Source: a virus (Duplodnaviria > Caudoviricetes). From it: 52,217 nt of DNA. The stretch spans positions 1 through 52,217 of IMG/VR virus record IMGVR_UViG_3300045284_000036; one strand, given 5' to 3'. This document shows, in pieces, positions 2,945 through 50,292 of the stretch (positions are counted from its first letter, which is position 1; each line of letters begins with the position of its first letter). A model generated the notes under the pieces. It made no database searches. It was not told the DNA's origin and worked only from the letters and a program-made list of their open reading frames with translations. The translations under genes were made by a program, and so were the position numbers.

Positions 2945-3172
2945 TCAGAAGTGAAAGGGACCGGGCACTTTTACCCCTGCTGTTCCCAGCAATGCCAGAA
3001 TTACCCACAGTACGACCAACACAACGATGACGGTCATTAGCACACGAATGATGGTTCTGAACGGTTCACCAAGCGGGATAAGCGGTAAAAGCTGTTGGAC
3101 CGCCCACCATACCACACCCAAGATCAGGCATACGATAATGATGCTTATGAGCGTTCCAATGATGCCACTCAT
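2945..3172 (-). CDS. Small two-TM membrane protein
   Basis: Two long hydrophobic segments separated by PLIPLGEPFR; ATGA overlap with the upstream gene. Confidence 0.75.
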   Translation of the reverse strand: MSGIIGTLISIIIVCLILGVVWWAVQQLLPLIPLGEPFRTIIRVLMTVIVVLVVLWVILALLGTAGVKVPGPFHF

Positions 3173-8571: not shown

Positions 8572-10011
8572 ATGGGCGCACTCAACATAATCAGTTCTTT
8601 TGCTGACCCTCTTAATCAGGATCAGGGTTCAGCCAAGCTTGTCAATTGCCGGGCTGTTGTACGCAGGCAGGAAGAACAAAAACTGTCAGGAATTCGTCTT
8701 GTTGGTTCTCCCGGTTTAAGCAAAGTCTGTAAGCCAACGACATCTTCATGCATCGTATTAAAACAGGCTCTAGGTACTGTATGGTCTGGTCATGCTGACG
8801 GTAGTATTTACAGCGGTGTTGAAACAGCTACCCCAGTTCTTAGGGGTACTGTTACAGTTGACCCTGTGTATCCGGTTATTCGTTTTGCTGAAGACCGTAC
8901 TGCACTAGCAATTGCGTCTAACGCCCCAAGTACTGCTGGTCTTGGTGGGACAGGTTACATAGCAACTATGAGTGCTGGCGTTCTTAACTGTAATTTTTTA
9001 GCTACAATCAATTTTGATCCTTCAGCTGTATGTAGCTTGGACAACTATACGATATGGGCTGCTGCGTCGAATTCCATAGGTACGCCGCCTCTCAATCAAT
9101 CTGATAAAATGTATTCGTCCAAACCCCTTGAGCCAGCTACAGTTATAGCTAATTCGTTTGCTACGGCTGAAGCCAGAGCGGACATGCTTTATGACGTAGT
9201 TACTATTGGACGCACGTTCTGGCCTTTTGGTACGCGTTCAATTGAGATGTGGTACAATCAAGGTGGCAGCGCAGATTTCGCTTTCACTTCCTTTACCAAT
9301 TCCATGCTTGAAGTAGGACTGGCGGCACGTCGCACGCTTGCCAATTTGCATGGAATAGTGATGTGGGTTGCGACAGACCGTCGTGTGTGGATGGGCAAAG
9401 GCCAGAGCGGTCAGCCGGTATCGTCTGGCTGGGTTGATTTGTTATTACAGCAAATCGATTTGCAAAAACTGACTGCGTATATGTACGCACAAGGTGGTGA
9501 TGAATTTTACGTACTTAGTATGGAAAAAGAGTGGTCCATTGAGTTAGCTATTTCCACTATGTCATGGGTTTACCGGCAAACGTATGGCCGCCCAGATCAT
9601 GCCGGTCGTTGTGCTTTGGAGCATAACAATGGCATTTGCTATGTTGGGCTGGATACCGGCGAGATATGTACAGTCAATCTGGCGACAGCTTCTGAACCAG
9701 CTGGCGTGATGCCACGATCTATCATAACGATGTGGATTGGATTGCAAGAATTACGTCATGCCATCAATCAAGTTGATATCACCAGTTACATGGGACCAGA
9801 CGCGGGGGCATTCACGCTTGATTGGTCAGAAGATCGCGCTATTACATGGCGAGGGCAGCGTACAATTACGTGGCCGGAACCGGGTGCTCGTCGCGCAGTT
9901 GCCAGAGCTATGGGTAGCTCCCGTCGCAGACAGCTAAGATTGCAGTACGGTGGTTCTAAAGCGCCATTCGAAATGGACGAATTTTTTGTTCAAGTCAGCG
10001 AAGGAAACTAA
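8572..10011 (+). CDS. Tail hub / DNA stabilisation protein (P22 gp10-like)
   Basis: 479 aa, beta-rich; FATAEARAD, FGTRSIEMW, LDWSEDRAITW and MGSSRRRQLRL motifs. Confidence 0.8.
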   Translation: MGALNIISSFADPLNQDQGSAKLVNCRAVVRRQEEQKLSGIRLVGSPGLSKVCKPTTSSCIVLKQALGTVWSGHADGSIYSGVETATPVLRGTVTVDPVYPVIRFAEDRTALAIASNAPSTAGLGGTGYIATMSAGVLNCNFLATINFDPSAVCSLDNYTIWAAASNSIGTPPLNQSDKMYSSKPLEPATVIANSFATAEARADMLYDVVTIGRTFWPFGTRSIEMWYNQGGSADFAFTSFTNSMLEVGLAARRTLANLHGIVMWVATDRRVWMGKGQSGQPVSSGWVDLLLQQIDLQKLTAYMYAQGGDEFYVLSMEKEWSIELAISTMSWVYRQTYGRPDHAGRCALEHNNGICYVGLDTGEICTVNLATASEPAGVMPRSIITMWIGLQELRHAINQVDITSYMGPDAGAFTLDWSEDRAITWRGQRTITWPEPGARRAVARAMGSSRRRQLRLQYGGSKAPFEMDEFFVQVSEGN

Positions 10012-10235
10012 TGGCTGACATTAACAAAAGATACATCCCCCCGCCACCAGCGGAGTTTGCTACGAATGATCCGGTTTTTAACCGATGGCTTCATGACGTA
10101 ACCGGTCGTTCGCAACTCTTGAACGGAACCGTCGTACCTGATCCGAAACGAGGTATCAATGGTGACTGGTACTGCAACACAACGGCAAAACATATCTACG
10201 TCAAAATAGCTAACGCGTGGGTTCTGATAGTGTAG
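10011..10235 (+). CDS. Small tail-module protein
   Basis: TAATG coupling to the hub gene; GINGDWY...IYVK...W motif seen in virion proteins. Confidence 0.65.
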   Translation: MADINKRYIPPPPAEFATNDPVFNRWLHDVTGRSQLLNGTVVPDPKRGINGDWYCNTTAKHIYVKIANAWVLIV

Positions 10236-31067: not shown

Positions 31068-34000
31068 ATGGATCTAGACGTAGCCGGTCCCGACATATCG
31101 GGCGAAAACCAGTTCAACCTCAACCCCGGCAGCGGCATCGATCCGGGCCGGTTGGTGCGGGCTATCCCCACGGCAGCAACGGCTGTCTACCCCGAAACGT
31201 CATCTGAACTGGTCGCGCCGGTCTCGGTAACAGCTGCACCGCGCGGTTCAGAAACCCGGCCCATCGCCGCTGCGCCGGGAAGGCCGGTCGATCTGGCACC
31301 GGTCAATCCGGTACGGCTGGCGCAGGCGCAGCCCGTTGCCCCCGTGGTGACGCGCGGCTCGATTGCGCCAACGGTCTCCACCGACGCGGTCGATGCCGCT
31401 GGCGCAGGCGACAAGCCACGCCCGGCCCAATATCCCGGCGAAGGCAAAGGTGTTGGCGGTACCCTGCGCAGAATGGACCCCGGCTACCAAGGCCCCGATG
31501 TCAACCCGCTGGAACAGGAACGCCAGCAGCTGATTGCCCGGCGCGATATCGCTGCGCGCAAGGCGCAGGGACCGCTGATGCAGATACTGGATACCGAATG
31601 GTCGAAGAACCAAGCCAAGGAAGCCGAACTGGCTAACCAGCGTATCGGCCAGATCGACCAGCAGCTGCAAGCCCAGAAGACCAACGCCCAGTACGCCAAG
31701 AACATGGGCATCGAAAAGAACATGGGCGCGACGGCTGACACGGCAGCGATCAACGAACAGGCGCTTGAAGAATGGCGCAAGAACGGCAACCTCAACGCCT
31801 ACAAGGGGCTGCATGGCGCGGGGCTGGGCGGTCGCGCCGATCTGTACATGGACGAAGGCATTGCAGCGCTGGGCAAGAAAACCGATAACGCTAACACTTT
31901 GATCGAACGGCTTTCCAACGCACCAACCCAGCCCGCGTACAATCAGATCCGCAACGACATTCTGAAAGGGGCCAAAACCCCCGGTCACGATTATTCGCAA
32001 TTCGGCATCAGCGATGAAAATCTGCCAAAGACCAAAACCGAATTTGACGCGCGGCGGCCCGACATTACCGCCAAGCTGAATAACGCGTCCACCATGGTCA
32101 GCCAGTTTCAGCAGAAGCAGCGCGAACTGTCGCAAGTGAAGCCGATCACCGACGAGAAAGTTGGCGGTCAGGTCACCGGCAGGCACAAGTTTGCTACCGG
32201 CGAAGTAATGCCCAACACAAGCCCGGTGACGCTGCCAAATGGCGCACAGGGTGCGCAGGCGCAGCAAAATTCCAAAGACTTGCATAATTACGGTACCGGG
32301 GGTCCAAACAGCTGGAATAACGCCACGCCCGGTCAGGCCGAAACCTTCGTCAAGCAACTCGCCACCGAAGAAGTCAAAGGCGCGCTAGGTCAGTACAAGA
32401 TGGCGAAAGCGTTTTCCAACGCCGCCAACAACAACGAACTTTATAAATATCCAGCCGGTCATGCCTTTCTGGCTGACGCGCTTGGCGCGATTGGCCGTGA
32501 CGTGGCTGAAGGTTCAAAGGCCGCAGGCTCGATTGGTCTGGTTAAAATTCTTGAGAGCAAGTATGGCGGCGTTGAAAACTTTTTGAATGGTGCCACCAAC
32601 AACTGGGCCGCCTACAAGGCGTGGGTTCAGGGCGGCAGAAAAGGCGAAGAAGTCAAACTTATGCCGCGCCTGACCCAGCAATCAATTGAAGGCTACAAGG
32701 CGGTTGCCAATTTCAAGATGGAAGAGACCAAGAAAGAACTGGACCGTCTTGGTTCGCCCATCGAAACGGCGGGGCGCTACGGCATTGCGCTTGACAAGCT
32801 TGGACTGGACAAGGAAACGCAGGAACTGGTCAAGCCAATACATAGCAAGGCGGTAGAAGAAGCCCGTCTTGCTTATGACAAATATCCCTACATGGTCGTC
32901 GGTTCGACGCGCGTGATGCTGCCGGAAGATGCCAACGTGCCCGGCATGAAACCAGCGGGCGGCTACGCCAAAGAGCGCGGCACGGCAGCGATTGAAACGC
33001 TTGAGAAAGCGCCACCGGGAAGCCCGCCGCCGCCTGCCACACCCGGTGGTCCTCCGGGCGGCCCGCCTTCGACGGTGGTGCCATCAGCCATCAACAGAAC
33101 GCCAGCGGCGCAAGTGGTGTACGGCGCGGCGGGCGAGACCGCGCATAATCTGTCAGGCGGCAACGTCAACGTTGCCAAGAACGCGGCGACGATTGTCACG
33201 TCTTCGGCACAGAGCGAAAGCGATTTCAAACACGATGCCACGCATGACGTTGATCCAAAAACCGGGCAGCCCATCGGTCAGGGATTGTTTGGTCACAACG
33301 CAGACCGTCTGAAGGCATTGCAAACGTTTGCTGGTGTGCCTGCAACTGGCAAACCCGGTGCGCCCATTCCGCCCGACGTACAATCCAAATTCTTTGCCCG
33401 CGAACTGATGACAGCGGCATCGACCGACAGGTTCATTGCGGCAACGCTGAACAATCCGAATGCCACGGCGGAAGACTTGACCAAAGTCCAGATCCGGCTG
33501 GAAAAACCCGCTGGCTACAAGGGACCGGGCACGGAAGAAAAAGTGCCAAGCTGGAATAAGCGGCTGGCTTCGACGCGCTTGCTGGCAGAGGGACCGGAAA
33601 CGCAAGCGCCGCCACCCCCGGCTGGGCATACCCAAGCGCAGACCCCGGCTTCGCTCAAACTGCCCTACCCCAACCCCAAGACACGCGAAGAAGCACAGGC
33701 CAATTACGCTGCCGGGCAGCGCCAGAGTGCGGAAGAGGCTGCCGCCTACATAGCCCGCAGGAACGCGCTGGCAGCGCAGGCGACAACGTCGGCTGCCAAC
33801 ATAGCCCCGGCAGCTTTAGGCACCGCTGGAGCCGTCGTAGGCAGCGTGGGAGGCCCTGTAGGCACACTGGCAGGCGGCACCGCTGGCGGCGCAGCGGGTG
33901 GCGCGATCAAGAATTACTTTACGGGCGGGGAAGCCAATCAAAATCTGCCCGGTTATGCCAAGGCGACCGGGATAGGTGCGGCACAGGGCGCGGTCGCAGG

Positions 34001-35336
34001 CATTCCCGGCGCGGGGGTGGCGGGAACGGCTGCGCGCGTCATTGGCAGCGGCGTTGTGGGTGGCACCGAAGCCGCTCTGGAAGGCGCAGAGGCAGGCGAT
34101 ATCGTCAACAAGGCTGGCGGCAGCATGTTGGGGGCGGCCGTAGGCGAAGCTTTTGGTCAAGCACTGGGTATGACAGGCCATAAAATTTATAATTATTTTT
34201 CTGGTACCGCGAAAGCCGAAGTGCAGGCGGCAGCGAAGGTTTTGGCCGAACAACAGCCTAAAAACGTCCTTGCAGACGGTAAAACCGTTGAAAATATTGC
34301 ATATACCAAGGCTGAAAAACTCGTCAAAGACAGAGGTCTGGACCCCGATCACGCCGCTTATGCCTACAATCAGGTAGCAGCAAAGGCTTCAAAGGGCGAA
34401 GCGCTCACGCAACGCCCCGGCGAAGTTGAAAAAGTGCGTGCCGCTGCGGAATTGGAAAAGGTCAAGAATACAGTTGGTGACGCTGGGGCTGCTGCGAAAG
34501 TTACTCCGCGTTCGCCGCCAGCTGGTGCGCCATTCAAGGCGATACCGGGCGGTCCAGTGGACAGTATTCTGACTGGAACAAGTGGTACGGGCAAACTAGC
34601 TGCAACGTACATGCCTGAAGCTGTGCATGCTGAAAATTTATTGCAGAAGTCCGCTGCTAATATGCGCGAAAGATGGGAAAACGCGGCTACTGCGCGCACA
34701 ACTTTGTTGGAACATGAACGCAAAGCAATACGGGATGGTGATGAAGCTAAAGAAAAAGCCATGCGCACTATTGCTGATACGGTTCGCGATCAACAAGAAA
34801 AAATGGCGCGAGCAGTATTACCGCAAAAAGAAGCTGACGCACTGATACAACATTTGAAAACGGCAGATACGCGTTACCGTAAAGCTATGCTGGCTGGTGG
34901 CGATAACATTGTTAAAACCATCGCTGCTGGTGGCAGCAAAGGCAATACGGCGAAAGAGGCATTCGAAGCGCTGGCGGGCAACGATCACGCCGCCAAACAC
35001 ATCATGAATTCGCTGGTGCGGGCAGAGAACCGGAAAAAAGAAGGCACGGACGTATTGAAAATAGCCGGTGCGTCACTGGCTGCGGCGCATTTTGTACCGC
35101 TTATTGGTACTGCTGCTGGCATGGTTGGTGGCGCGGTGACTGCTGCTAAAGCTGGACAAATGTTGAAAGACTGGATGGTGCAAAGAGGCGCTGGGAAAAC
35201 GGTGTCTTTTAAACAGCTGATGGCTAAAGAGATGACCGACAAGAGCAAGCTTCATTTCAGAGCCAGCGGTGCTGCGCTTGGAGGTGCTGTTGGGGGAGAG
35301 GCGGCGGAAAGTGCGATGGCTTCTCCTGCCCCTTAG
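31068..35336 (+). CDS. Large internal virion / ejection protein with phage-tail-lysozyme-like domain
   Basis: 1422 aa, Ala/Gly-rich; QSES.F...GQGLFGHN..RL..L...Q..F..REL...EKP segment; glycine-zipper region. Confidence 0.75.
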   Translation: MDLDVAGPDISGENQFNLNPGSGIDPGRLVRAIPTAATAVYPETSSELVAPVSVTAAPRGSETRPIAAAPGRPVDLAPVNPVRLAQAQPVAPVVTRGSIAPTVSTDAVDAAGAGDKPRPAQYPGEGKGVGGTLRRMDPGYQGPDVNPLEQERQQLIARRDIAARKAQGPLMQILDTEWSKNQAKEAELANQRIGQIDQQLQAQKTNAQYAKNMGIEKNMGATADTAAINEQALEEWRKNGNLNAYKGLHGAGLGGRADLYMDEGIAALGKKTDNANTLIERLSNAPTQPAYNQIRNDILKGAKTPGHDYSQFGISDENLPKTKTEFDARRPDITAKLNNASTMVSQFQQKQRELSQVKPITDEKVGGQVTGRHKFATGEVMPNTSPVTLPNGAQGAQAQQNSKDLHNYGTGGPNSWNNATPGQAETFVKQLATEEVKGALGQYKMAKAFSNAANNNELYKYPAGHAFLADALGAIGRDVAEGSKAAGSIGLVKILESKYGGVENFLNGATNNWAAYKAWVQGGRKGEEVKLMPRLTQQSIEGYKAVANFKMEETKKELDRLGSPIETAGRYGIALDKLGLDKETQELVKPIHSKAVEEARLAYDKYPYMVVGSTRVMLPEDANVPGMKPAGGYAKERGTAAIETLEKAPPGSPPPPATPGGPPGGPPSTVVPSAINRTPAAQVVYGAAGETAHNLSGGNVNVAKNAATIVTSSAQSESDFKHDATHDVDPKTGQPIGQGLFGHNADRLKALQTFAGVPATGKPGAPIPPDVQSKFFARELMTAASTDRFIAATLNNPNATAEDLTKVQIRLEKPAGYKGPGTEEKVPSWNKRLASTRLLAEGPETQAPPPPAGHTQAQTPASLKLPYPNPKTREEAQANYAAGQRQSAEEAAAYIARRNALAAQATTSAANIAPAALGTAGAVVGSVGGPVGTLAGGTAGGAAGGAIKNYFTGGEANQNLPGYAKATGIGAAQGAVAGIPGAGVAGTAARVIGSGVVGGTEAALEGAEAGDIVNKAGGSMLGAAVGEAFGQALGMTGHKIYNYFSGTAKAEVQAAAKVLAEQQPKNVLADGKTVENIAYTKAEKLVKDRGLDPDHAAYAYNQVAAKASKGEALTQRPGEVEKVRAAAELEKVKNTVGDAGAAAKVTPRSPPAGAPFKAIPGGPVDSILTGTSGTGKLAATYMPEAVHAENLLQKSAANMRERWENAATARTTLLEHERKAIRDGDEAKEKAMRTIADTVRDQQEKMARAVLPQKEADALIQHLKTADTRYRKAMLAGGDNIVKTIAAGGSKGNTAKEAFEALAGNDHAAKHIMNSLVRAENRKKEGTDVLKIAGASLAAAHFVPLIGTAAGMVGGAVTAAKAGQMLKDWMVQRGAGKTVSFKQLMAKEMTDKSKLHFRASGAALGGAVGGEAAESAMASPAP

Positions 35337-36149: not shown

Positions 36150-36743
36150 ATGAATGAAGCGATTTACTTTAAGGATGACGTGCTGCCTAATGAGAAGAGG
36201 CGAGAAGTAAACAATCTTCTGCATAAGGGTGGCGCGTCAGCCCCTTGGGTACATGGCTGGAAGTCGCGTGAAAAAGTTGACACTTTTTCATTTTGGCACC
36301 GGCATTTTGCCGGGTACCGCAGCGCGACCAAAGGCATCGCTTATGATTGCGAAGCGGAGTTGGCCGAATTTCCAGTCATCCATGAATTTTGGCAGACGCT
36401 TGCAGGGGGCCTGTTGCATGGTCACCGGCTGGTTCGTTGTTATGCCAATGGCCTTGCTTATGGCAGCGACGGCACGCTTCATACGGACACCAGAGTACCA
36501 AACAGCTACACTACCATTTACTATCCACATGAAAGCTGGAACCCGGATTGGGGCGGCGAGACAGTATTTTTCAATCGCGAGAAAGACGATATTCTGACTT
36601 CGATCTATCCGCGTCCAAACCGGTTACTGATGTTTGATGGAACGTTGCCGCATGTAGCGCGTGGTGTTTCCAGAAGCTGCCCGTTGTTGCGTGTAACTTT
36701 GATGTTCAAGACGGACAAGCACGATGCTGGACCCCAAAATTGA
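36150..36743 (+). CDS. 2OG-Fe(II) oxygenase (prolyl-hydroxylase-like)
   Basis: HxD (HTD), W..DWGGET.F, P.PNRLLMFD..LPH, R.TLMFK. Confidence 0.88.
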   Translation: MNEAIYFKDDVLPNEKRREVNNLLHKGGASAPWVHGWKSREKVDTFSFWHRHFAGYRSATKGIAYDCEAELAEFPVIHEFWQTLAGGLLHGHRLVRCYANGLAYGSDGTLHTDTRVPNSYTTIYYPHESWNPDWGGETVFFNREKDDILTSIYPRPNRLLMFDGTLPHVARGVSRSCPLLRVTLMFKTDKHDAGPQN

Positions 36744-38681: not shown

Positions 38682-39068
38682 ATGGCTGGCATCGATATTC
38701 TTAACCAGTTTCCAAATTCGAAAATGGCACAGGCTGTCGATCTGGGACAGTCGCGGTTCATGTCCACTGACAGCACGACTGCTATAACGCCTACGCAGAA
38801 GACTGGTACGGCTACGCTGACTGGCGTAGCTGGTAACACATCAACGGCGCAATTGGGGACTTTGTGCGGTCTCACCACTTCGTTTGCTACGATCATGCTT
38901 ACGATAACAACGTCAGTGGCGGGCGTTACGATCACTCAAGGCGGCGCTGCGAAAAAATACATGCAAGGTGAAAGTGCAACGTTTCAAAACGTTACTCTTA
39001 CACAAAACCAACTTCAGGTTTTCACTGTTACTGGTGACGTAGTGACGATCAATTATGTTGGGGTGTAA
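38682..39068 (+). CDS. Thr-rich virion protein
   Basis: AAGGA SD; beta-rich. Confidence 0.65.
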   Translation: MAGIDILNQFPNSKMAQAVDLGQSRFMSTDSTTAITPTQKTGTATLTGVAGNTSTAQLGTLCGLTTSFATIMLTITTSVAGVTITQGGAAKKYMQGESATFQNVTLTQNQLQVFTVTGDVVTINYVGV

Positions 39069-39073
39069 CTGCC

Positions 39074-39418
39074 ATGAACCCCGGAACCAACAACCTTGAT
39101 CTTTATCGGGGTGACACTAAGCGTTGGCAATTCAAGTTGTGGATCGACGTTGCCAGAACTCAGCCGGTCGATCTTACAGGCGTAGTTGCTAAGGCTACTA
39201 TTCGAGACAAGGCAGTTGGCGGCAGTTTTGAATTGCCGCTGACTTGCACTGTGACGGTACCAAACATTATCGACATGGTGTTGACTGCAAACCAGAGCAA
39301 TACGTTACCAGCAGTAGGTGTCTGGGACTTGCAGCTGACTTACCCTAGTGGTGATATCATTACACCACTAAAAGGCGCAGTGACTGTAACACAAGATGTA
39401 ACTTACGTTGCCTCATGA
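39074..39418 (+). CDS. Fibre-attachment (BppU-N-like) protein
   Basis: YRGDT...PVDLTG...IR...VWDLQL...G.V.V..DVT. Confidence 0.65.
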   Translation: MNPGTNNLDLYRGDTKRWQFKLWIDVARTQPVDLTGVVAKATIRDKAVGGSFELPLTCTVTVPNIIDMVLTANQSNTLPAVGVWDLQLTYPSGDIITPLKGAVTVTQDVTYVAS

Positions 39419-41853
39419 ACCAGATCACGACCATTGACGTATTCCTGAACGATGAAGTCACTGCTGTTGACGTTTTTCCTGAAAGTTCAATCGTTATTGT
39501 CGATGTACGGCCTGATACTCCGATCAGCATCATCGACATTAACCTTGAAGATAAAATCACTACCGTTGACGTACATTTTGATCCGTCAACGGTAGAGATG
39601 ATTGGTATCGCTGGTGTTGTCGGACCAAAGGGCGATCAGGGCATACAGGGGATACAAGGTGTCAAAGGCGATAAGGGCGACCAAGGTGATACTGGCCCTC
39701 AAGGGGCGCAGGGTGTCCAAGGCGTCAAGGGTGATAAAGGCGATAAGGGCGACAAAGGCGATAAGGGCGACAAAGGCGACCAAGGTGATACCGGAGACAC
39801 CGGACCCCCCGGAGGTCTAGGTGAAGCACCTGAAGACGGCGAAATTTACGGAAGATCTGACGGCGAGTGGGTTGAAATAGATACTGGCGGCGCGGCGGTG
39901 TTCTTGTCGGACACGGCACCAGCGGGTGCCGCAACTGGCAACCTCTGGGTCGAGACTGATACCGGCTTGATGTACGTCCGCTTCGATGACGGCACTAGCC
40001 AGCAATGGTTCGCGACTTCTGGCGCGACCAGTGGCGGTCCAATGGGGCCACAAGGCATACAGGGTATACAGGGCATACAGGGTCCGCAGGGTATCGCAGG
40101 CGCGTCTACTTCCCGGTTCTTTTATCGCAAGGACAACGCTACAACAGCTTCCAATCCGGGCGACGGCAGATACCGCTACAACAACACAATACAGGCGGCA
40201 GCGACTACCGTGCTGTATTTCAGCAATCTCACGCAGGATAATTTCGACGTAACTACGATGTTCGCGTTGGCAACGCTTGACGATGATATCGTTATTCAGG
40301 ATAAAAATTTAGCTTCGGATTACCAGCATTGGCGGATGATGGGACCGGCCATTCCGCATTCAGGTTGGTTTGAAGTACCGGTCGCGTATGTAGATGGCAG
40401 TGGTGTAGTATTTATCGGCAATCAGGATGTTGCCGTGCTGGTGCGTACTGTTGGTGAACAAGGCATACAAGGCCCTGTAGGTCCGCAAGGCCCTGTAGGT
40501 CCGCAAGGCATACAGGGAGAAAAGGGCGACATAGGCAACCCTCAACCGATTTATATCAGCGATACGCCGCCGCCTTCGCCTCTGGATAACATGCTGTGGT
40601 ACGAGAGCGACACGTCGATGTTGTTCTTGAGGTATCGTGACGTTGATGGCGTGCAATGGGTTTCGTTGCCCGGTGGTCCTGCTGACAGTGTGCGCTACGG
40701 TGCAGCACAGACGCTGTCAGCACCGCAGAAAACACAGGCGCAGACTAACATCGCAGCAGTCGCGTATGAAACGCAGACGTTAACAGTGCCGCAGCAAACG
40801 CAAGCGCGGCAGAATATCTACGCTGCTCCGCTTGATCTGATTGCACTGACTGGCATGCAGTACAACGGTTCAATAGAAGTGAACCAAGAGTTAGCAGGCG
40901 CGGCGCGTGCAACTGGCGGTCATATTGCTGATAGCTGGGAGCTATCAAACACTGGCACGATGGTTTTATCGGCGCAGCAAGTGGCCGACGCGCCGCCCGG
41001 TCTGATTTATTCGGCCAAGATAACAGCGACTACCGGACAGGCGGTGCTGGGTGCTAGCGATTACTGGACAATCATCCACCGGCTTGAAGGCATTCGCTGT
41101 GCGCGGTTGGCGTTTGGTACGGTGAACGCACAGCCATTGACGATAGGTTTTTGGGCTAAGTCATCGCGCACGGGCGTTTTTACTGGTTGCGTTCGCACTG
41201 CGACAACTATCCGCTCCTATCCGTGGACCTATAACATTAGTGCTGCGAATACTTGGGAATGGAAAACTGTTACGGTTCAGCCTGATCCAAGTACAGCACT
41301 TGATACTGGTATGGTACCAAGTTTGCATGTGTTGTTTACGCCAGCAGTAGGCGCGACACGCGCGGGACCGCCCGGCGCGTGGTCATCTAACAATCCGACT
41401 TATCTCGGCGCGACCGGTGGCGTGACTGCGATTGCGACCAACGAGACGTTTCAGATTACAGGGATAATGCTGTTGCCCGGCATTGAAGCGCCGCCAGCAT
41501 CACGGTCAGCATTGATTATGCGGCCTATAGATCAAGAATTGCTAATTTGTAAGCGTTACTTCTACAATGGCTGTCCGTCACTTCAAGGCGTTACCAACGG
41601 CAGCACGGCGTTATCCCGACTTTCGGGAAGTCATCCTGTAACAATGCGGATAGTACCAGCGTTAACGCTGGTTGCGGCCCTTCCGATTTTCGAAGGTGCA
41701 GTAGCTACAACGATAGCGTCGCTTGGTACTAATTACAGCACGATTTATGTTTTGGAGACTGAGGCAACTACTGCTGCTGCAATGACCGCTGGTCGAGCGC
41801 CAAAGACTTACCAAGGTAGCGGCGGTAATCTTTGGGTGAGCGCGAGGATGTGA
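39415..41853 (+). CDS. Tail fibre with collagen-like Gly-X-Y repeats
   Basis: Three GXY tracts, two SDT.P...LW.E.DT..L modules, C-terminal carbohydrate-binding-like region with ELLICKRYF. Confidence 0.85.
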
Positions 41854-42221
41854 TGGCGTATCAATATCCTAATTCCCCAACGATAGGAGATATGGCTAAC
41901 GGATACGTTTGGGATGGAGAAAAGTGGATTGCATCAAGCAATCCGGTAGCGGAAAATTTCGATACGCGATACGTCAATGTTACTGGTGATGCCATGAGTG
42001 GCAGCTTGACGCCAACCGTTACTGGCACGCTCAATCTTGGTTCAGCTTCGTTCCGCTGGGCAACGGTCTATACGTCTGACTTGGACCTTAACAATGGTGT
42101 TGGCGACTGGACTATTGTTGAAGGCGAAGATGATTTGTTCATCTACAACAACAAGAATGGCAAAGTGTACAAGTTCGCGCTCTATGAAGTTGCTCCTGCC
42201 ACAGCACCACTAAAGAGGTAG
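41853..42221 (+). CDS. Short fibre-associated protein (start MAYQYPNSP)
   Basis: TGATG coupling; YVNVTGDAMSG, LGSASFRW, WTIVEGEDDL motifs. Confidence 0.75.
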   Translation: MAYQYPNSPTIGDMANGYVWDGEKWIASSNPVAENFDTRYVNVTGDAMSGSLTPTVTGTLNLGSASFRWATVYTSDLDLNNGVGDWTIVEGEDDLFIYNNKNGKVYKFALYEVAPATAPLKR

Positions 42222-42223
42222 CT

Positions 42224-42769
42224 ATGGGTATCGATGTTGGTGGTTTCACGATAGCTGGTGTCAGCGGAACGCAAGCATTGAAGTTTGCCGGGTCTTCAGA
42301 TGCGTTCACCATCGACACCACTGGTCGTACCTACTACCCAAATCAAGTTGGGTTCATTGCAGGTTTTAATGTGGACAATGGCTGGACCGCGCAGACTGGT
42401 GCGGCATGGACTGCACAAAAATATTTCAATGGTGTCAGTCTTAACAAAGGTAGCGGCTACTTGGCGGGACGTTTCACCGCGCCAGCTACAGGCGCGTATT
42501 TACTGCATTGGACCGGCTACCAGTACAAGGCTTCTGCGGCAGTGGGTCATTACATCCATCCGCAGTTTTGGGTTAACGGTGGCGGCACGCCAACTTCTTA
42601 CCGTTTGCGAGGGTACTTCACACCGACAGGCTATGCATTCGTTGGCGAGATTGTCGATATCTTCCAGTTGAACGCTGGCGACTATGTCGAGGTAAACGTT
42701 TATTGCGCCGCTGCTGGTATCAGTCTCTATCAGTACTACTCCATGTTTGCTGGCTATTTGGTGGGCTAA
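42224..42769 (+). CDS. C1q-domain protein 1
   Basis: GRFTAPATGAYL...LNAGDYVEV...FAGYLVG. Confidence 0.8.
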   Translation: MGIDVGGFTIAGVSGTQALKFAGSSDAFTIDTTGRTYYPNQVGFIAGFNVDNGWTAQTGAAWTAQKYFNGVSLNKGSGYLAGRFTAPATGAYLLHWTGYQYKASAAVGHYIHPQFWVNGGGTPTSYRLRGYFTPTGYAFVGEIVDIFQLNAGDYVEVNVYCAAAGISLYQYYSMFAGYLVG

Positions 42770-43332
42770 TGGGCATCGACCTCAACAGCACGACACTAAT
42801 AAGCAGCGCCGGGTTGGTCGCCACCTTCAGCGGCAGCCAGATTATGAAGATGGGACCAACTGGCATCTTGCAACGCTACAATGCGGGTCAACCGATGTTT
42901 CGGGCGGGTGGCTCTGGTACTGCTGTTCAGACCAATGTTTCCGGCACTGTCAATACGTTTGCCACGGTCATCCTCAACGCCACCAACGTCAATGTCGGTT
43001 CGTGCTACAATACCAGCAACGGGCGCTTTACTGCGCCAGTCGCTGGTGTCTATTTGTTTACTGCGTCCACTTACTGCACTGGGACAGGCGCGGGCTGGCA
43101 TATCCATGCCATGTTCTATGTTAACAGCAGTGCCACTGCGCGTAGACCTTCTGGTCCGTTGTATCGCATTCACGGTCACGGACATACTACTGGCTACATC
43201 GATGACACCGAGAGCTTTGAAATCATAGCGCTGTCCGCAGGCGATTATGTAACTTTTGAGAACTACTCTGGTGGGTTCATCAACACTTACGTTTTGCAGT
43301 ACTCAAGATTTGAGGGGTATCTGTTAGGCTGA
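42769..43332 (+). CDS. C1q-domain protein 2 (start MGIDLNS)
   Basis: GRFTAPVAGVYLF...LSAGDYV...FEGYLLG; TAATG coupling. Confidence 0.8.
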   Translation: MGIDLNSTTLISSAGLVATFSGSQIMKMGPTGILQRYNAGQPMFRAGGSGTAVQTNVSGTVNTFATVILNATNVNVGSCYNTSNGRFTAPVAGVYLFTASTYCTGTGAGWHIHAMFYVNSSATARRPSGPLYRIHGHGHTTGYIDDTESFEIIALSAGDYVTFENYSGGFINTYVLQYSRFEGYLLG

Positions 43333-43892
43333 TGGGTATTGATATAGGAGGCAACGCGATCACGCAAGCTAGCTCAGTGCTCGCTATCAATACTGGCGTC
43401 AGTATGAGCCTGCTGTCGGCTGGCAGTGTGGTGCGGCCAAATCAAATTCAGTTTCAAGCGTATGGCAATCAAGTAACGACGTGGGTTAACTTCACTCAGG
43501 GCGCATGGAATATAATGCCGTTCCCCAATGTCGTCGTGAACATCAATTCTTGTTTCAACACTACTACCTCGCGCTTCACTGCACCGGTCACTGGAATGTA
43601 TTTCTTCCAAGCCAGTTGCTACATCCTCAAGGATGGTGCGAGCGATGGTTATTACTGGCACCCGGTTTTTTACGTTAATGGCGGGGCAAGTGGTTCGGTT
43701 AATACCGGCTATCCCAACTATCGTATCCGCAGCTATGGCGTTCCGGTTGCGAGCTATCACGATAGTCACATCACACAGGTCTACTTACTGAATGCTGGTG
43801 ATTACGTCGAACATATTTGTTATTCGAATGGTGCTCCAACCAATCGTTACCACACACCTTACCAGCGGTTCACTGGCTTCCTGTTAGGATAA
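43332..43892 (+). CDS. C1q-domain protein 3
   Basis: SRFTAPVTGMYFF...LNAGDYV...FTGFLLG; TGATG coupling. Confidence 0.8.
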   Translation: MGIDIGGNAITQASSVLAINTGVSMSLLSAGSVVRPNQIQFQAYGNQVTTWVNFTQGAWNIMPFPNVVVNINSCFNTTTSRFTAPVTGMYFFQASCYILKDGASDGYYWHPVFYVNGGASGSVNTGYPNYRIRSYGVPVASYHDSHITQVYLLNAGDYVEHICYSNGAPTNRYHTPYQRFTGFLLG

Positions 43893-43896
43893 AACA

Positions 43897-44187
43897 ATGG
43901 CTACAATCACAATTACAATTACAAATGATGAAATGCTGGCTTTGGAATACGTGGCAGTAGACCCAGTGGAGTGGGTCACCAACTTCACTAAGGTTCGCGC
44001 TGCTGCTGCCATGCAGGAAATTTACGAAACTGAAATGGCGCGAATGCTGGCAGACCCAGATATCAAGACCATTCCTGCCGACAAAAACGAAGTGATACGC
44101 GCTGCCAAAATTAAGAGTGCGGCAGCGCGTCAGAAAGAATTTTTGGCTAATCCTCCAATTCCGGCGGTGCCGCCCGATGGCGTTTAA
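43897..44187 (+). CDS. Small protein after the C1q genes (possible fibre chaperone)
   Basis: 96 aa; ALEYVAVDP.EW..N...RA. Confidence 0.65.
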   Translation: MATITITITNDEMLALEYVAVDPVEWVTNFTKVRAAAAMQEIYETEMARMLADPDIKTIPADKNEVIRAAKIKSAAARQKEFLANPPIPAVPPDGV

Positions 44188-44920
44188 CTTTCCAGACAGC
44201 CCGACTGATGGTCAAGTGTTCAATCAATGGACATGGAGCGCCGCGACCGGAGCATGGAAGTTAACACCGCCACCAGCCTATACAGCTGCGGAAGCTGACG
44301 CGCGATTTGTCAATGTCAGTGGCGACACGATGACAGGTCATTTGTCGTTGCCGATTACGCCAACTAATCCCAATGCGGTGCGCAAAGATTACGTTGATGC
44401 GGCAATTGCCGCGATCCCGCCCGCAGTCTTTTTTCCGGCTGGTACGGTAATGCTGTTCTATCAAGCCGCCGCGCCGACCGGCTGGACAACAGTAACGACG
44501 CACAACAACAAGGCTCTGCGAGTAGTTAGCAGCGGTGGCGGCGCTAGTGGCGGCACCAACGCCTTTTCCACAGTGTTCGCGCAAACCGTAACCGGCAATC
44601 ACACTAACTCAGCCGCGACACAAACCAACATGAACGTCGGTGTGTCGGGCACGGTGACGGTGTATCCGCTCGCAAATAGCGGCTACTATTACCACATCAT
44701 CGCTGGAGGCAACGCCCTCTCGCAAGATGTATGGGGTGGTAATCCATCCTATTCGAATTACGTATGTTATTTCTACCAAGCCGCTGGCACTCAGAGTTAC
44801 TACATGCAAGCCGGTAACAGCATGGCGGGCGCGACTAACAACGGCAGCGGCGGCGCGCACAATCACACAATAACGATGGCGATCCAGTATATAGATATCA
44901 TTCTGGCGAGTAAAAACTGA
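44177..44920 (+). CDS. Short tail fibre with collar-like domain (start MAFNFPDSP)
   Basis: FVNVSGDTMTG, AVRKDYVD, FPAGTVMLFYQAAAPTGW, QYIDIILASK. Confidence 0.78.
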   Translation: MAFNFPDSPTDGQVFNQWTWSAATGAWKLTPPPAYTAAEADARFVNVSGDTMTGHLSLPITPTNPNAVRKDYVDAAIAAIPPAVFFPAGTVMLFYQAAAPTGWTTVTTHNNKALRVVSSGGGASGGTNAFSTVFAQTVTGNHTNSAATQTNMNVGVSGTVTVYPLANSGYYYHIIAGGNALSQDVWGGNPSYSNYVCYFYQAAGTQSYYMQAGNSMAGATNNGSGGAHNHTITMAIQYIDIILASKN

Positions 44921-45219
44921 TGTTGGTTCCGCATGCCGCCAAGGGTCCGGTCTGTCCGCTGCACAAGAAAGACGTGAGTACGGTTTGCCACAAGTGCCCG
45001 TGGTGGACGCGGGTAGTTGGCAAGAACCCGCAGAGCGAAGAACTGATTGACGATTGGCGTTGTGCGGTATCGCTGCTGCCGATGCTGTTGATCGAGAACT
45101 CGCAACAGCAACGCGCGACTGGCGCGGCGGTCGAGACACTGCGTAACGGCATCGTAGATGCCGCCGAGCGAGCGACGAATATCAGGAGAATTGAGAGTGC
45201 GCGTAACAATCATAGTTGA
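44920..45219 (+). CDS. Cys-containing tail-associated protein
   Basis: CPL...CHKCPWW..V.GKNPQ...DDW.CA; TGATG coupling. Confidence 0.7.
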   Translation: MLVPHAAKGPVCPLHKKDVSTVCHKCPWWTRVVGKNPQSEELIDDWRCAVSLLPMLLIENSQQQRATGAAVETLRNGIVDAAERATNIRRIESARNNHS

Positions 45220-45628
45220 TGACAACACAGTTCATGTCGATGGCGTGAGCCGCACAGTCGATTGTACGCCGCTGCTGTCTGACAACATTCATGCTGTGCA
45301 GTGGAATACTGACCACGGCGAAATCGAATTTCGAAACACGGTGGATGTTGAGCAAGGTATTATCAATCGCGCACCGAATGAGTTTATTCGAGATTTTACA
45401 CCATACCAGTCCTACGTCGATGCGTGGGAGACCGAGAATGCCAAGCAGGAATTACTGGAATATACCGTTGAGCGAAAGCGAAAAGAAGATTGGGAAGCCG
45501 GGCAAGCTGAATTGAAGCGAGCGGAGGAAAATCCGCCGCCACCGATGCCAAGGCCCCCAATGGACGACAGGGTGGCTGATGCACTGGAAATGATCCTGCA
45601 ACGGCTGGAAAAGCTGGAGAAAGGATGA
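45197..45628 (+). CDS. Tail fibre assembly-like protein
   Basis: AGGAG SD before GTG; IHAVQW...GEIE. Confidence 0.65.
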   Translation: MRVTIIVDDNTVHVDGVSRTVDCTPLLSDNIHAVQWNTDHGEIEFRNTVDVEQGIINRAPNEFIRDFTPYQSYVDAWETENAKQELLEYTVERKRKEDWEAGQAELKRAEENPPPPMPRPPMDDRVADALEMILQRLEKLEKG

Positions 45629-45918
45629 TGGTTGAGGGTGCTAAATCGTGGCTAAAAGAAAATCAGACGCTGGTTTACTTCCTGATTGCACAGATGATCG
45701 CAATTGGCGCGGGCGCGGCGAGTAGCATCGCTTACATGGTTAAGCTGGAAACAAGAGTGTCGATCATGGAGGAACGCGGGGCGGCCTACACAGTGGGCCG
45801 CATGGATGAAATGAAAATAAAAATTGCCGTGCTTGAACATCAGATCGATGAAAACGAAGATCAGATCAAGCGTATTCGCGAGATTATGTTGCGAGACTTC
45901 GGCAAAACCCTGAAGTGA
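45625..45918 (+). CDS. Putative holin / membrane protein
   Basis: One TM segment plus coiled coil, directly upstream of the endolysin. Confidence 0.5.
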   Translation: MMVEGAKSWLKENQTLVYFLIAQMIAIGAGAASSIAYMVKLETRVSIMEERGAAYTVGRMDEMKIKIAVLEHQIDENEDQIKRIREIMLRDFGKTLK

Positions 45919-45929
45919 AGGAGGGTGTA

Positions 45930-46910
45930 ATGGGTTACAGCAAAATTTGCATTAGTTCAGGACATTCGACCAAATGCCAAGGGGCCGTTGGTGTCTTGAA
46001 CGAAGTTCAAGAGGCAACCAAGGTAACTGACCAACTTGCTAAAGATCTAAAATCGCGTGGCGTCGAAGTCTGGACCTTCCATGACACGGTTTCTGACGAC
46101 AGTTCAGAAAATTTAAATCGCATTGTTGATTGGCATAACAGCAAGACGCGCCAACTCGATATTTCGGTCCACTTCAATGCCAGCGACAGCCACACCGGTC
46201 ACGGCACTGAAGTTTGCTGGTACACACAAGAAAAACTGGCTGGCGAATTGTCGGCAGCGATTGCCCATGCCGGTCATCTGACTGACAGGGGTGCGAAGTA
46301 TCGCGATAATTTATTCGTACTCAAGAATACCAGTGCCCCCTGTGTCTTACTCGAAATCTGCTTTTGCGACCATGCCGACGACTGTGCAAAGTATCGTCAA
46401 AACTTTCTGGCAATCTGCACAGCAATGGCGGAAATATTGACTGACGGTGAAGTAATTGAACCGGTGCCGCCTGAACCAGAAGGCGAATATTTATTTGAGA
46501 CAACTGGAAAGTGTAGTTACTTCGGGGGACCAGATGATACAGGTGTTTCAGCTTCGGAGGGTTTGGCCTTTCATTTTACGCTCAACGAAGCCAACCAGCA
46601 TTTATTCTTGCCCATCCAACCTGTTGGAACGACTGGCTTGGCGCGAAGGCTCAATGCAAAAGGCGTCCACTACATCGCATGTAGATTTGACTACGACACC
46701 ACTCCTAAAGAAATGTTGGCAACTGATAAAATGGCGCTGGTAACTTCGGTCGCGACCGGCGTGTCTGCGACAGCTTTCTGTGCTGACTGGGGACCGCATA
46801 GCGACACTAAACGCGTTGCGGATCTAAGTCCCGCCCTCATGAGGGATTTGGGATTGGTGACGGACGACATTGTTGAAGTGGTGTACCCGTGGAATGGCGA
46901 GCCATGTTAG
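45930..46910 (+). CDS. Endolysin, N-acetylmuramoyl-L-alanine amidase (Amidase_3) plus C-terminal domain
   Basis: ISSGH, E, SVHFNA and LLEICF zinc-amidase motifs; AGGAGG SD. Confidence 0.9.
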   Translation: MGYSKICISSGHSTKCQGAVGVLNEVQEATKVTDQLAKDLKSRGVEVWTFHDTVSDDSSENLNRIVDWHNSKTRQLDISVHFNASDSHTGHGTEVCWYTQEKLAGELSAAIAHAGHLTDRGAKYRDNLFVLKNTSAPCVLLEICFCDHADDCAKYRQNFLAICTAMAEILTDGEVIEPVPPEPEGEYLFETTGKCSYFGGPDDTGVSASEGLAFHFTLNEANQHLFLPIQPVGTTGLARRLNAKGVHYIACRFDYDTTPKEMLATDKMALVTSVATGVSATAFCADWGPHSDTKRVADLSPALMRDLGLVTDDIVEVVYPWNGEPC

Positions 46911-46974: not shown

Positions 46975-47076
46975 ATGGCGAAAAAGTCCAAGCCCGCAAA
47001 ACCAAAGAAAGTTGTGTGGACTGCTGCGATGAAAGAGAAGCTAAGAAAGATGAAAGAGAGGGCAGCAAAGAAATGA
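46975..47076 (+). CDS. 33-aa highly basic peptide
   Basis: AAGGA SD; MAKKSKPAKPKK...; ATGA coupling to the next gene. Confidence 0.5.
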   Translation: MAKKSKPAKPKKVVWTAAMKEKLRKMKERAAKK

Positions 47077-47951
47077 GCAAAAAGACCAAGCCAAATCCCA
47101 CACCCAAGCAGGAAGGCCGGTCACCCAAAGTGGTCGCAACCTACTTCCTAGCCAAGCATTCCGGCTTGTTCCAACCGGGTCAGCCATTTATTCTGTCTCA
47201 TACGTTATCGTCCGCTAAAACTGGAAAAACAAAAACGCTTTCTATGGATAATATTCGCTATCCTAGAGGTAAGTCTCAGGGTGGAGGGGGAAGTGGTGGC
47301 GGTGCTTTGCCTGTCATAATAAGTAATCCTGCATTTCGATCTTTGACCAGTACGACATATGCCGTGCGGAGTTCTACTGCTGTTACGGTGCCTGCGGGCG
47401 TAGTTGATGGCGACATTCTGATTGCGATGTTTGTAGCAAACCGTATTGCTGCTTCGACTACGCTTAATGCTCCTGCCGGATGGACACTGATTGACAGCAG
47501 CCGGGTCAAGGACAGCACAGGACTGACGTGTGACGCTGCCATTTACTGGAAACGGGCGTTAGGTGAGACTGGCAGCTATACTTTCACTAACACATCGGCC
47601 AGCACTCAATTGGTGGTACTGGCCTATTCAGATAATGTCGCAGCAGGGTCACCAATTGCATCTTCATCTAAAAATTTTACTACTGATCCGACTTCTTCTG
47701 GGGTGACAGCCAGTGCTTTTGCAGTGACGACGCCAGCTAACAATGCGTATGTAATTTATCTGTCGCATAACTGGGTGAACAGTGGTGCGCTAGTGCCGCC
47801 AACTGGAATGACAGAACGGTTTGATAGTTTCATCTACGTGTCAGATCAGTTGGTTGTTACAGCAGGAAGCATTGGACCGTTTTTCCAAGTTAGCGGCAAT
47901 GCCGCCGCGCAGCCATGGGCGGCTTATGTCGTTGCGTTGAAGCCAGCGTAG
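47073..47951 (+). CDS. Virion-associated beta-rich protein
   Basis: Basic N-terminus, GGGGSGGG linker, then VPAGVVDGDILIA...APAGWT...YWKRA domain. Confidence 0.7.
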   Translation: MSKKTKPNPTPKQEGRSPKVVATYFLAKHSGLFQPGQPFILSHTLSSAKTGKTKTLSMDNIRYPRGKSQGGGGSGGGALPVIISNPAFRSLTSTTYAVRSSTAVTVPAGVVDGDILIAMFVANRIAASTTLNAPAGWTLIDSSRVKDSTGLTCDAAIYWKRALGETGSYTFTNTSASTQLVVLAYSDNVAAGSPIASSSKNFTTDPTSSGVTASAFAVTTPANNAYVIYLSHNWVNSGALVPPTGMTERFDSFIYVSDQLVVTAGSIGPFFQVSGNAAAQPWAAYVVALKPA

Positions 47952-48695: not shown

Positions 48696-49321
48696 GTGGG
48701 TTTGACACGTCACGCAACTCGTCCGGTACTTACTTCCAAGCAAAACAGTTTGGCTCTATTTTGCGTGGCTACGGTCCACCCGTTCCGCAGGCGGGCGTTG
48801 TCGGTGATATGTACATCGACGTAATGAGTTGGCAGCTGTACGAAAAACGCGATCTGAATGGACTTGATGACTGGGGCCACTATCTTTTCGTGGTACCGGC
48901 ACTTTATCGATCATCCCTGAAATGGTATGGCCCGGCAGCACCCAGCAATTCTATCGGTGTTGCAGGAGATTATTTCATACAATGGGCTGGCTTCCCGAAT
49001 TACGGGATGCAGCCCATGATATGGGGGCCGAAGGAATGGACTGGCTGGCCTGAAAACGGTGATGGTTCTGATACCGTTATTGCGGCCATGCATCCCGAAG
49101 TGCATCAGCTTGGCATGACGGATGAAGGCCCGGACAAGGTAGATATGGGCCTTACCCAACTGATCGCTGTTGGTCTCTTCGATGAATACAATATCCCCGT
49201 CATCGTTACTGCAAATCCGGGTGACCCCGTGTTGCGTCTTGGCACGCAGAGTTCCGGGCAACTGGTTACAATCGTCATCAATTCGCTGTACACCGCAGAA
49301 GATGAACATGCGTTATTGTAA
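48692..49321 (+). CDS. Putative tail protein
   Basis: Repeated G.G.P....G..GD.YI modules typical of fibre-associated proteins. Confidence 0.7.
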   Translation: MSGFDTSRNSSGTYFQAKQFGSILRGYGPPVPQAGVVGDMYIDVMSWQLYEKRDLNGLDDWGHYLFVVPALYRSSLKWYGPAAPSNSIGVAGDYFIQWAGFPNYGMQPMIWGPKEWTGWPENGDGSDTVIAAMHPEVHQLGMTDEGPDKVDMGLTQLIAVGLFDEYNIPVIVTANPGDPVLRLGTQSSGQLVTIVINSLYTAEDEHALL

Positions 49322-50292
49322 TGGTTTATAACCCGTCATCTGATTTTGTAGGTTTGTGGCGCACCATTACTGGCGGCGTTGTCAAGGCTGAAATGCCGGG
49401 GCTGGATTTTGTCGTGGCCGCACTTGGCCGCGCCGGTCTTATCACGGTGGTATTTTCTGCTACGCCGCCTACGTTGAACCAACCTACGACTGCGTGGTTT
49501 CAAACTGCTGTACCAAGTTATGCGGCAGAAGGTGCGCTGTATCTATGGAATGGCGACACTAACAGTTACCAGCCAGCCACGCCTGATTTGTTCGTTCAAT
49601 ATTTTGCGTTAGCCAAGCACCAGACTATCTTCGCTACAACGGGTGGACCGCCATTAGACAGCGTAGGTTCAGATAACGACTACGCTTTCAGAATGGATGA
49701 ACCGGGTGGCATCTACGGTCCCAAAGTAGGCGGCCACTGGCCTTCTACGCCGCTGCCGGGCACGTCGAATGCTGACATTAGCAAAGCACTGGATTTTCTT
49801 GGTACTACGCAAGGCGGCGTTCTTTATCGCGGTGCAACAGGGTGGACAGTGTTGCCACCGGGTACAGCTGGCTACGTGTTACAGACGCATGGCCCCGGTA
49901 CAGATCCGACGTGGGCGCTTGCAACTGGGCCAACAGGCGCGCAAGGCGTCAAAGGTGACAAAGGCGATAAAGGTGATCCCGGCATTCAAGGTCCGCAGGG
50001 CATACAAGGTATTCAAGGCCCCGGTGGAACTGGACCGCAGGGACCAATAGGTCCGCAGGGTATTCAGGGCTTAAAAGGCAACACAGGCAATACAGGCGCA
50101 CAGGGGCCACAGGGCATTCAGGGGCCAGCTGGTGGCGTTGTGACCACGGTTGGCGCAGTCGGTACCTATCGCATAGTCAACTTCCCCGGACCGCCTTGGT
50201 ACGCGGGTACTTGGATTGAAGTTGACAGGTTTACCATAAATCCGGGGTTCGGAGATCCTATATATTACTATTTCATTCTTCGCGTAGCTTAA
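49321..50292 (+). CDS. Second collagen-like fibre protein
   Basis: Uninterrupted GXY tract (GPTGAQGVKGDK...), LPPGTAGYVLQT motif. Confidence 0.8.
   Translation: MVYNPSSDFVGLWRTITGGVVKAEMPGLDFVVAALGRAGLITVVFSATPPTLNQPTTAWFQTAVPSYAAEGALYLWNGDTNSYQPATPDLFVQYFALAKHQTIFATTGGPPLDSVGSDNDYAFRMDEPGGIYGPKVGGHWPSTPLPGTSNADISKALDFLGTTQGGVLYRGATGWTVLPPGTAGYVLQTHGPGTDPTWALATGPTGAQGVKGDKGDKGDPGIQGPQGIQGIQGPGGTGPQGPIGPQGIQGLKGNTGNTGAQGPQGIQGPAGGVVTTVGAVGTYRIVNFPGPPWYAGTWIEVDRFTINPGFGDPIYYYFILRVA

Follow-up and report, generated by a model that had tools for sequence, protein, structure and literature searches.

Three tandem C1q-domain genes of an environmental phage as probable fibre-tip subunits, and the case for a shared A-B-C head

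What would a phage build from three neighbouring, similar C1q-domain genes: one tail-fibre head composed of three different chains, or three tips of one chain each? This question is raised by the viral record IMGVR_UViG_3300045284_000036, which was analyzed over its whole length of 52,217 bases (subsequently designated the window) and is a complete phage genome with direct terminal repeats at its ends. A first-pass annotation, made from the sequence, had pointed out three short tandem genes, here named A, B and C, and had proposed that their products form a heterotrimeric receptor-binding head or, alternatively, three homotrimeric tips. The trio is part of a conserved cassette of five genes, i.e. 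an adaptor gene, A, B, C and a gene for a small helical protein (sizes in amino acids, aa):

41853..42221, + strand: short fibre or adaptor protein, 122 aa, with a C-terminal module at about residues 49-113 and PHROG tail-fibre C-terminal matches
42224..42769, + strand: C1q-fold subunit A, 181 aa (Pfam C1q 21.1 bits, short of the cut-off; identity to B 37%, E 3e-14)
42769..43332, + strand: C1q-fold subunit B, 187 aa (Pfam C1q 41.3 bits; AlphaFold2 (AF2) model)
43332..43892, + strand: C1q-fold subunit C, 186 aa (Pfam C1q 33.5 bits; 38% identical to B, E 5e-25)
43897..44187, + strand: helical companion protein, 96 aa, probable assembly factor for C1q heads (from gene position; AF2 model)

In the explanation that we propose, A, B and C would be subunits of the distal, host-recognising knob on a short tail fibre. 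The reading as C1q-type fibre tips is well supported, and we hold it with high confidence. That the knob is a single A-B-C heterotrimer, which would give each fibre tip three different faces, has in our judgement an even chance.

The three genes were confirmed to have the coordinates and the lengths (181-187 aa) given by the first-pass annotation, all three products start with MGID, and the TAATG (A/B) and TGATG (B/C) stop/start overlaps are present as described. Pairwise identities amount to 37-38%, and a three-way alignment has 43 invariant columns, which include R83-F84-T85-A86-P87, G90, Y92, L149, A151-G152-D153-Y154-V155, F175, G177, L179 and G181, so that the motifs RFTAP..G.Y, AGDYV and F.G.L.G are indeed common to the trio. 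Since the E-values within the genome reach 5e-25 (B/C) and 3e-14 (B/A), the paralogy is real and not a chance pattern.

The curated cut-off of the Pfam C1q profile (PF00386; 23.7 bits) was passed by B and C, and A stayed just under it. A profile of 21 trio genes matched solved chains of the C1q family among the PDB sequences (best E 3.8e-16), including cerebellin, adiponectin, C1q, C1QL and Caprin-2. The one chain that was folded as a monomer, B, gave with an alignment of 55 relatives an all-beta AF2 model with a mean predicted local distance difference test score (pLDDT) of 90.8. In a Foldseek comparison with the PDB, the top matches of this model were C1QL1 (9lkk), Caprin-2 (4ous), C1QL3, Cbln1 and the complement C1q chains B and C; matches to globular C1q (gC1q) domains had E-values down to 6e-9 and a TM-score by target of ~0.8, and the model is superposable on solved gC1q domains, as is characteristic of a gC1q jelly roll. 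Phage structures were matched as well, namely the central spike knob of phi812, the short tail fibre CBD of cyanophage A-1(L) and the tail of cyanophage A4, and among predicted viral structures the best matches were entries named ‘C1q domain-containing protein’ from Synechococcus phages and uncultured Caudovirales. The C1q fold claimed from the sequence was thus borne out by the Pfam scores of B and C and by the placing of the B model on gC1q domains, and modelling shows each chain as a predicted gC1q-type jelly roll with ~50 residues of beta-strands ahead of it. The translations of A, B and C gave no Collagen match in Pfam and contain no Gly-X-Y run; the repeats reside in a separate protein of 812 aa, in which Pfam Collagen is found, and the collagen-repeat fibre gene announced for the neighbourhood is therefore there. 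PF07484, the tail collar domain, had no match in A, B or C at E-values up to 1. C1q tips in phages are already known: the accessible parts of two reports (PMC3909814, PMC7468147) describe C1q genes as hypervariable receptor-binding genes in marine and glacier phages, and the accessible part of a third (PMC12923769) concerns fibres of extracellular contractile injection systems.

Relatives were collected with an iterated profile, which gave 110 sources, i.e. the window and 109 loci from viral and metagenome collections. Free-standing genes of ~185 aa with an MGID-type N-terminus (M-G/P-I/F/L-D/N...) occurred at 11 loci, and all 11 have three tandem copies, kept as a set of consecutive, co-oriented paralogues; the triplet is thus conserved in relatives. 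Nine arrays are complete (window, L001, L002, L003, L004, L045, L046, L047 and L048) and two (L054 and L031) are truncated where the contig ends; near-duplicate loci (L046/L047, L003/L004 and L048/L054) reduce the set to about eight distinct lineages. The junctions in the relatives are 1-nucleotide (nt) overlaps or gaps of 1-4 nt. Neither gain nor loss of a copy was seen across the MGID-type loci, whose divergence extends down to ~35% identity. At L045:5552-6113 a frameshift divides the gene in B position between two frames, and the C gene continues into the companion gene, both of which are likely to be assembly errors in the metagenome contig.

In most other relatives the C1q domain is terminal on a long fibre chain. 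Two giant phage proteins, of 2213 aa (L021:988-7626) and 1862 aa (L023:2713-8298), were each seen to have ten C1q-like domains in tandem, and chains in L020, L014, L015 and L030 have 3 to 6. A C1q profile search of 1.84 billion representatives returned 10,608 protein clusters at E ≤0.001, 38 of them at E ≤1e-30, and B has 43 free-standing orthologues of 182-189 aa with 43-78% identity. The most variable stretches of the B orthologues lie at about 50-71, 101-109 and 165-177; mean column entropy was 1.17 bits at the predicted interface vs. 1.42 elsewhere, a modest contrast that we do not use as evidence. A tblastn search with B of 50,697 deposited phage records found no match at E 1e-5, megablast of window positions 39000-46000 against deposited phages returned nothing but a 90-base collagen-repeat match, and a scan of prokaryote genomes yielded eight distant loci in metagenome-assembled genomes of several phyla and no close prophage. 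Longer proteins were also considered as fused trios. Among these, P0185, P0206 and P0227 have three C1q stretches and were rejected on account of signal- or membrane-anchor-like N-termini and the missing MGID-type N-terminus; from their sequences they look like a different lineage. The phage-type multi-domain chains P0209, P0170 and P0175 were discarded likewise, as their 4, 5 and 7 domains are not multiples of three.

The place of the trio in the virion may be judged from its neighbours. The order in the fibre block is 812-aa collagen-repeat protein, 122-aa protein, A, B, C, 96-aa protein, 247-aa fibre-like protein and lysis genes. Residues 49-113 of the 122-aa adaptor match residues 1005-1078 of gp28, the 1079-aa fibre of cyanophage P-SCSP1u (8i4m_e; E 1.9e-9, phmmer against PDB sequences), whose distal part is unresolved in the published map according to the accessible part of that report (PMC10575957). 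The module, with its GK.YKF.L.EV end, was detected by tblastn in 54 deposited phage records, nearly all of Synechococcus or Prochlorococcus phages, and a gene ending in it lies directly upstream of gene A in all ten trio loci with upstream DNA. The two flanking genes at 41853-42221 and 43897-44187, which the first-pass annotation had singled out together with the trio, are indeed its conserved partners in the relative scans.

These neighbours bear on the possibility that A, B and C are no virion tips and act instead as secreted or capsid-decorating lectins, or as superinfection-related proteins encoded in the late operon. Such roles are conceivable inasmuch as the proteins are known here from their genes and the phage is uncultured. 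However, the genes stand directly behind the fibre C-terminal module (10/10), between fibre genes and ahead of lysis genes, and the structural relatives in phages are fibre tips; we regard roles outside the fibre as very improbable.

For the knob on the fibre, we envisage that the three N-terminal strands starting with MGID form a common three-chain stalk, that this stalk plugs into the C-terminal module of a homotrimeric 122-aa adaptor, and that the variable outer loops touch the host surface; the adaptor module would act as the socket for a plug made of the three N-termini. A comparable arrangement was found in cyanophages. In seven inspected records (L121-L127, including P-SCSP1u, P-RSP2, P-GSP1 and S-RS29), the module invariably ends a fibre gene, and a tip gene of 60 to 434 aa overlaps this gene or starts within 4 nt. 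Next after the tip, P-RSP2, P-GSP1 and S-RS29 encode a Phage_tail_APC chaperone (PF16778, E 2e-15 to 2e-14). The C1q profile did not match the cyanophage tips significantly (hhalign probability 0.2%). Two leads may be mentioned: their starts (MAINI..., MALYV...) faintly resemble MGID, and a segment of P-SSP3 resembles the C1q hallmark.

The 96-aa product encoded behind the trio was predicted by AF2 to consist of four helices (mean pLDDT 91.1). A profile of this companion family found 61 open reading frames (ORFs) in 58 of the 110 sources, 56 of which have their start between -120 and +150 nt from the end of a co-oriented C1q-domain ORF. Most commonly, a single C1q-ended fibre gene is followed by a companion; at several loci two C1q genes precede one companion, and at MGID-type loci three do. 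Locus L106 has three C1q-ended fibre genes, each with its own companion (950-1225, 2950-3225 and 5447-5713). The rule ‘one companion per head’ was considered as a test for a heterotrimer and rejected, since two C1q genes with one companion and one C1q gene with one companion both occur. The 96-aa protein belongs to no Pfam family, Foldseek found no convincing fold match in the PDB (best E 2.8), and in the VIA wide structure search the best hit, ribbon-helix-helix antitoxins, had a Z of 4.4, which is below the noise level of this tool for helical models. Compared with PDB sequences, the companion profile reached a best E of 0.62, and its matches in the protein atlas are unnamed viral clusters only. 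An assignment to PF16778 was dismissed: the 96-aa protein gave no match to Phage_tail_APC for E-values of 1 or less, 42 family members were negative as well, and comparison with the chaperone of P-RSP2 gave an hhalign probability of 0.5%. By its position, which is that of tail-fibre assembly chaperones in other phages, the 96-aa protein may nevertheless aid folding or assembly of the head.

How old is the trio? Trees were computed from 24 genes and from 123 rows, and approximately unbiased (AU) tests were run on the 24-gene set and a 15-gene set. Groups in the 24-gene tree follow gene position, both in the lineage comprising the window, L001 and L046 (A 96/95, B 90/97, C 97/99) and in that of L002-L004 and L048 (A 99/96, B 100/99, C 92/90); the A orthologues come first in order in L001, L046, L002-L004 and L048. 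The six positional groups join in a polytomy, and a single ancient triplication was not supported by the AU tests (p 0.31 and 0.26). The 123-row tree placed the A-position genes together, albeit weakly (SH-aLRT 80), and split B and C in two groups each. Behind the VNG motif, A-position genes have a short or deleted loop, the six B-position genes all read (A/T)RR(P/A), and C-position genes have a long loop in which this motif is absent. This position-specific loop state, a rare character, is common to both lineages and favours a shared ancestry across them. In L031 (55-1627), an MGID-type trio with a companion gene, the three members form a clade of their own (100/98) apart from the A, B and C groups elsewhere, which points to an independent triplication or to concerted evolution. 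Be it through one old triplication or several, the number three was kept or reached repeatedly.

Folding of A, B and C together with alignments gave a complex score of 0.89 (runs 0.89, 0.89 and 0.92, C being the scored partner), as compared to 0.15 for the best of three controls; the mark applied to this score is reached by 116 of 157 solved complexes and by 2 of 215 mismatched pairs. Contacts agreed by at least 91% between runs, the partner pLDDT was at least 88, and the interface takes in residues 1-40 of all three chains. At two axis positions equivalent residues of different chains touch in the model, and these residues are paralogue-specific across orthologues. The first is E in 7 of 19 A proteins, hydrophobic or small in B (charged in 0 of 41) and N, T or S in 25 of 29 C proteins; the second is L in B (35/41) and F, Y or W in C (21/29). 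In the model, these residues would fit differentiated places within one trimer, which is no proof.

For the heterotrimer we count the fixed gene number and order, the shared plug, the single adaptor and single companion, the axis signatures and the precedents of DSLV2, phiKZ and complement C1q, which are compared below. A number of observations weigh against it. The 1:1:1 coupling of the genes, from which the heterotrimer was originally argued, is weak evidence: throughout the late operon (38682 to 46910) each junction overlaps or has a gap of ≤10 nt in the ORF table, in which the start of the 45158 gene is uncertain (examples outside the trio are 39415/39418, 41853/41853, 44177/44187 and 44920/44920), so that tight coupling is not specific to A, B and C. 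The confident ABC fold is what any C1q domains would be expected to give and may reflect the likeness to solved C1q trimers, the complement heterotrimer included; the model shows compatibility with a heterotrimer rather than a preference for it. Gene position is the basis for the socket and plug and for the chaperone role of the 96-aa protein, and companions follow one, two or three C1q genes according to the locus, i.e. one companion per head is not a strict rule. Grouping of the nine window-type genes as one clade was not rejected (AU p 0.26 for the 24-gene and 0.31 for the 15-gene set). Finally, no fused A-B-C chain was found among the longer proteins (best 38% identical), which is weak evidence.

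Further points on this side suit a different explanation, in which A, B and C are alternative tips and the homotrimers AAA, BBB and CCC compete via the MGID N-terminus for the same adaptor socket. A virion would then show a mixture of three receptor specificities, and its host range would be broader or bet-hedged. Phage fibres are as a rule homotrimeric, and so are nearly all known tips. The conserved interface residues (YR(I/L)(R/H) and the Y104 and Y184 columns) do not distinguish A, B and C; with the main interface residues common to all paralogues, homotrimers are plausible too. Chains with 2 to 10 tandem C1q-like domains exist in L014, L015, L020, L021, L023, L030 and L034-L038, and such multi-domain fibres require in-register homotrimeric C1q beads in the wider family. 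Behind the same module, Synechococcus phage S-RS29, whose adaptor has 139 aa, encodes two paralogous 142-aa tips, and L106 has its three separate C1q-ended fibres. The first-pass annotation had held that a freely varying copy number among relatives would speak against a heterotrimer. Copy number does vary in the distant TIDSSGR-type subfamily of small C1q genes, which have another N-terminus and occur as 1, 2, 3 or 2+1+1 copies, but not at the MGID-type loci. The hypervariability of C1q receptor-binding genes in marine and glacier phages, as described in the accessible parts of PMC3909814 and PMC7468147, would also agree with alternative tips. What such tips explain less well is that exactly three genes in fixed order are present at 11/11 MGID-type loci, that one adaptor gene and one companion gene serve all three, and that the axis residues are paralogue-specific; the ABC fold is confident as well, although homotrimers are not excluded by it. 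We consider alternative homotrimers possible, but lean towards the other side.

If the interfaces are generic, the co-translated chains could also assemble stochastically (AAB, ABC, BCC...) and provide a combinatorial set of tips. The interface residues common to the paralogues and the confident ABC fold are compatible with such mixing, and co-expressed C1q-family paralogues in animals form heteromers. However, three positional lineages were long retained, each with loop and axis signatures of its own, which suggests defined roles rather than free mixing, and we consider stochastic trimers improbable.

Returning to the A-B-C heterotrimer, its wider form would be that environmental phages evolved, separately from animals, an obligate A-B-C C1q head with a fixed trio, a cyanophage-type socket and a dedicated helper family. 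This we put forward tentatively, as its chances seem to us slightly short of even.

Two further genes of the fibre block frame the cassette:

39415..41853, + strand: collagen-repeat fibre protein, 812 aa (Pfam Collagen PF01391, E 8.4e-15, 4 stretches)
44177..44920, + strand: fibre-like protein, 247 aa, listed for context only; its N-terminus resembles the 41853 product and several L001 fibre proteins

The 812-aa protein is matched by 49 PHROG families (best phrog_5073, E 1.2e-30), most of the 25 listed being labelled tail or tail-fibre, and the stop of its gene overlaps the start of the 41853 gene in a TGATG. For the 247-aa protein, weak PHROG tail-fibre matches were obtained (E 4e-4 to 4e-3). 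The N-terminal motif F-P-x-S/A-P-x-x-G ... W-x-G-x-x-W recurs in several fibre-like proteins, in the window at 41853-42221 and 44177-44920 and in L001 at 3750-5486, 5486-6001, 7982-9508 and 9508-10065, which suggests that one anchoring end may be used by several different fibres per virion.

Elsewhere, the genome encodes terminase, capsid protein, an SU10-type adaptor, a family-A DNA polymerase, helicases and an amidase endolysin. An ORF of 1422 aa (31068-35336) stands out by local G+C (0.58-0.59) and AT skew (+0.18 to +0.25), G+C being ~0.50 and AT skew mostly negative in the remaining genome; neither Pfam nor PHROG gave a match to it. At 36150-36743, a few genes ahead of the collagen-repeat fibre, lies the gene for a 2OG-Fe(II) oxygenase (PF13640, E 6e-8), which could hydroxylate the collagen repeats; the best PHROG family of this product carries the label DNA endonuclease V. 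We also noted a second collagen-repeat protein (49321-50292; Pfam Collagen, E 8.6e-8) and, downstream of the endolysin and outside the main fibre block, a 311-aa protein (47016-47951) with PHROG matches of unknown function.

The host range of phages is set by their fibre tips, and a conserved three-gene C1q knob would present three non-equivalent binding surfaces per tip. If true, this would be a second, independent case of the architecture of complement C1q, and host recognition would diversify in a manner unlike the swapping of whole homotrimeric tips. The module boundaries of the cassette (socket, tips, companion) could help to annotate the many C1q-domain proteins in viromes that are labelled hypothetical, and the companion family is a lead towards a new class of fibre assembly factor. 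Our literature search, which covered few subscription journals, returned nothing on phage C1q genes in tandem trios or on phage tips that are C1q heterotrimers. C1q tips as such being known, new here are the conserved trio, the socket-and-plug cassette and the companion family.

Among known systems, the C1q proteins of pelagiphages and cyanophages, the short tail fibre CBD of A-1(L) (PDB 8ke9) and the tail of A4 (9k09) resemble the trio in having a gC1q jelly roll at the distal end of a fibre. Phage C1q receptor-binding genes adjoin a tail fibre gene and are regarded as host-recognition proteins in the accessible parts of PMC3909814 and PMC7468147. In those phages, however, the C1q domain is found at the end of one longer fibre chain or in the product of a lone gene, whereas the trio consists of three free-standing, stalkless genes of ~185 aa in fixed order with a separate adaptor. 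The cyanophage cassettes of P-SCSP1u, P-RSP2, P-GSP1 and S-RS29 have the same fibre-end module, followed by a small tip gene and then a small gene in chaperone position; their tips are single (two in S-RS29) and unlike the C1q profile, and their chaperone is PF16778, unlike the 96-aa protein of the window.

The head of vertebrate complement C1q, an A/B/C heterotrimer (PDB 1pk6, 2wnv), has the same fold as the trio according to Foldseek and profile matches. Both involve three paralogous chains from neighbouring genes, and a collagen-repeat protein is encoded near the trio. Complement C1q and the C1q-TNF-related proteins carry their Gly-X-Y stalk on the same chain, whereas the trio is without it, the collagen being in the separate 812-aa protein, and the heterotrimer of the trio is a prediction. 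Nothing indicates common descent of the two three-gene arrangements.

Heteromeric fibres made from tandem paralogues are also found in viruses. As described in the accessible part of PMC13250141, the hetero-hexameric fibres of phiKZ (gp131-like paralogues) share with the trio tandem paralogues that have a common N-terminal attachment domain and a differing distal domain; they differ from it in having six chains, a propeller-type distal domain and a location on the baseplate of a jumbo myophage. The tripartite tail of virophage DSLV2 likewise comprises three consecutive, co-oriented fibre-tip paralogues of ~200 aa, and the trio is kept in relatives as it is here, as stated in the accessible part of PMC12724248. 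The DSLV2 proteins combine PF07484 with a gp37-tip-like fold, whereas the trio of the window is C1q without a PF07484 match. According to the same part of that report, the DSLV2 trio is related to Synechococcus phage proteins and co-purifies as a heterotrimer.

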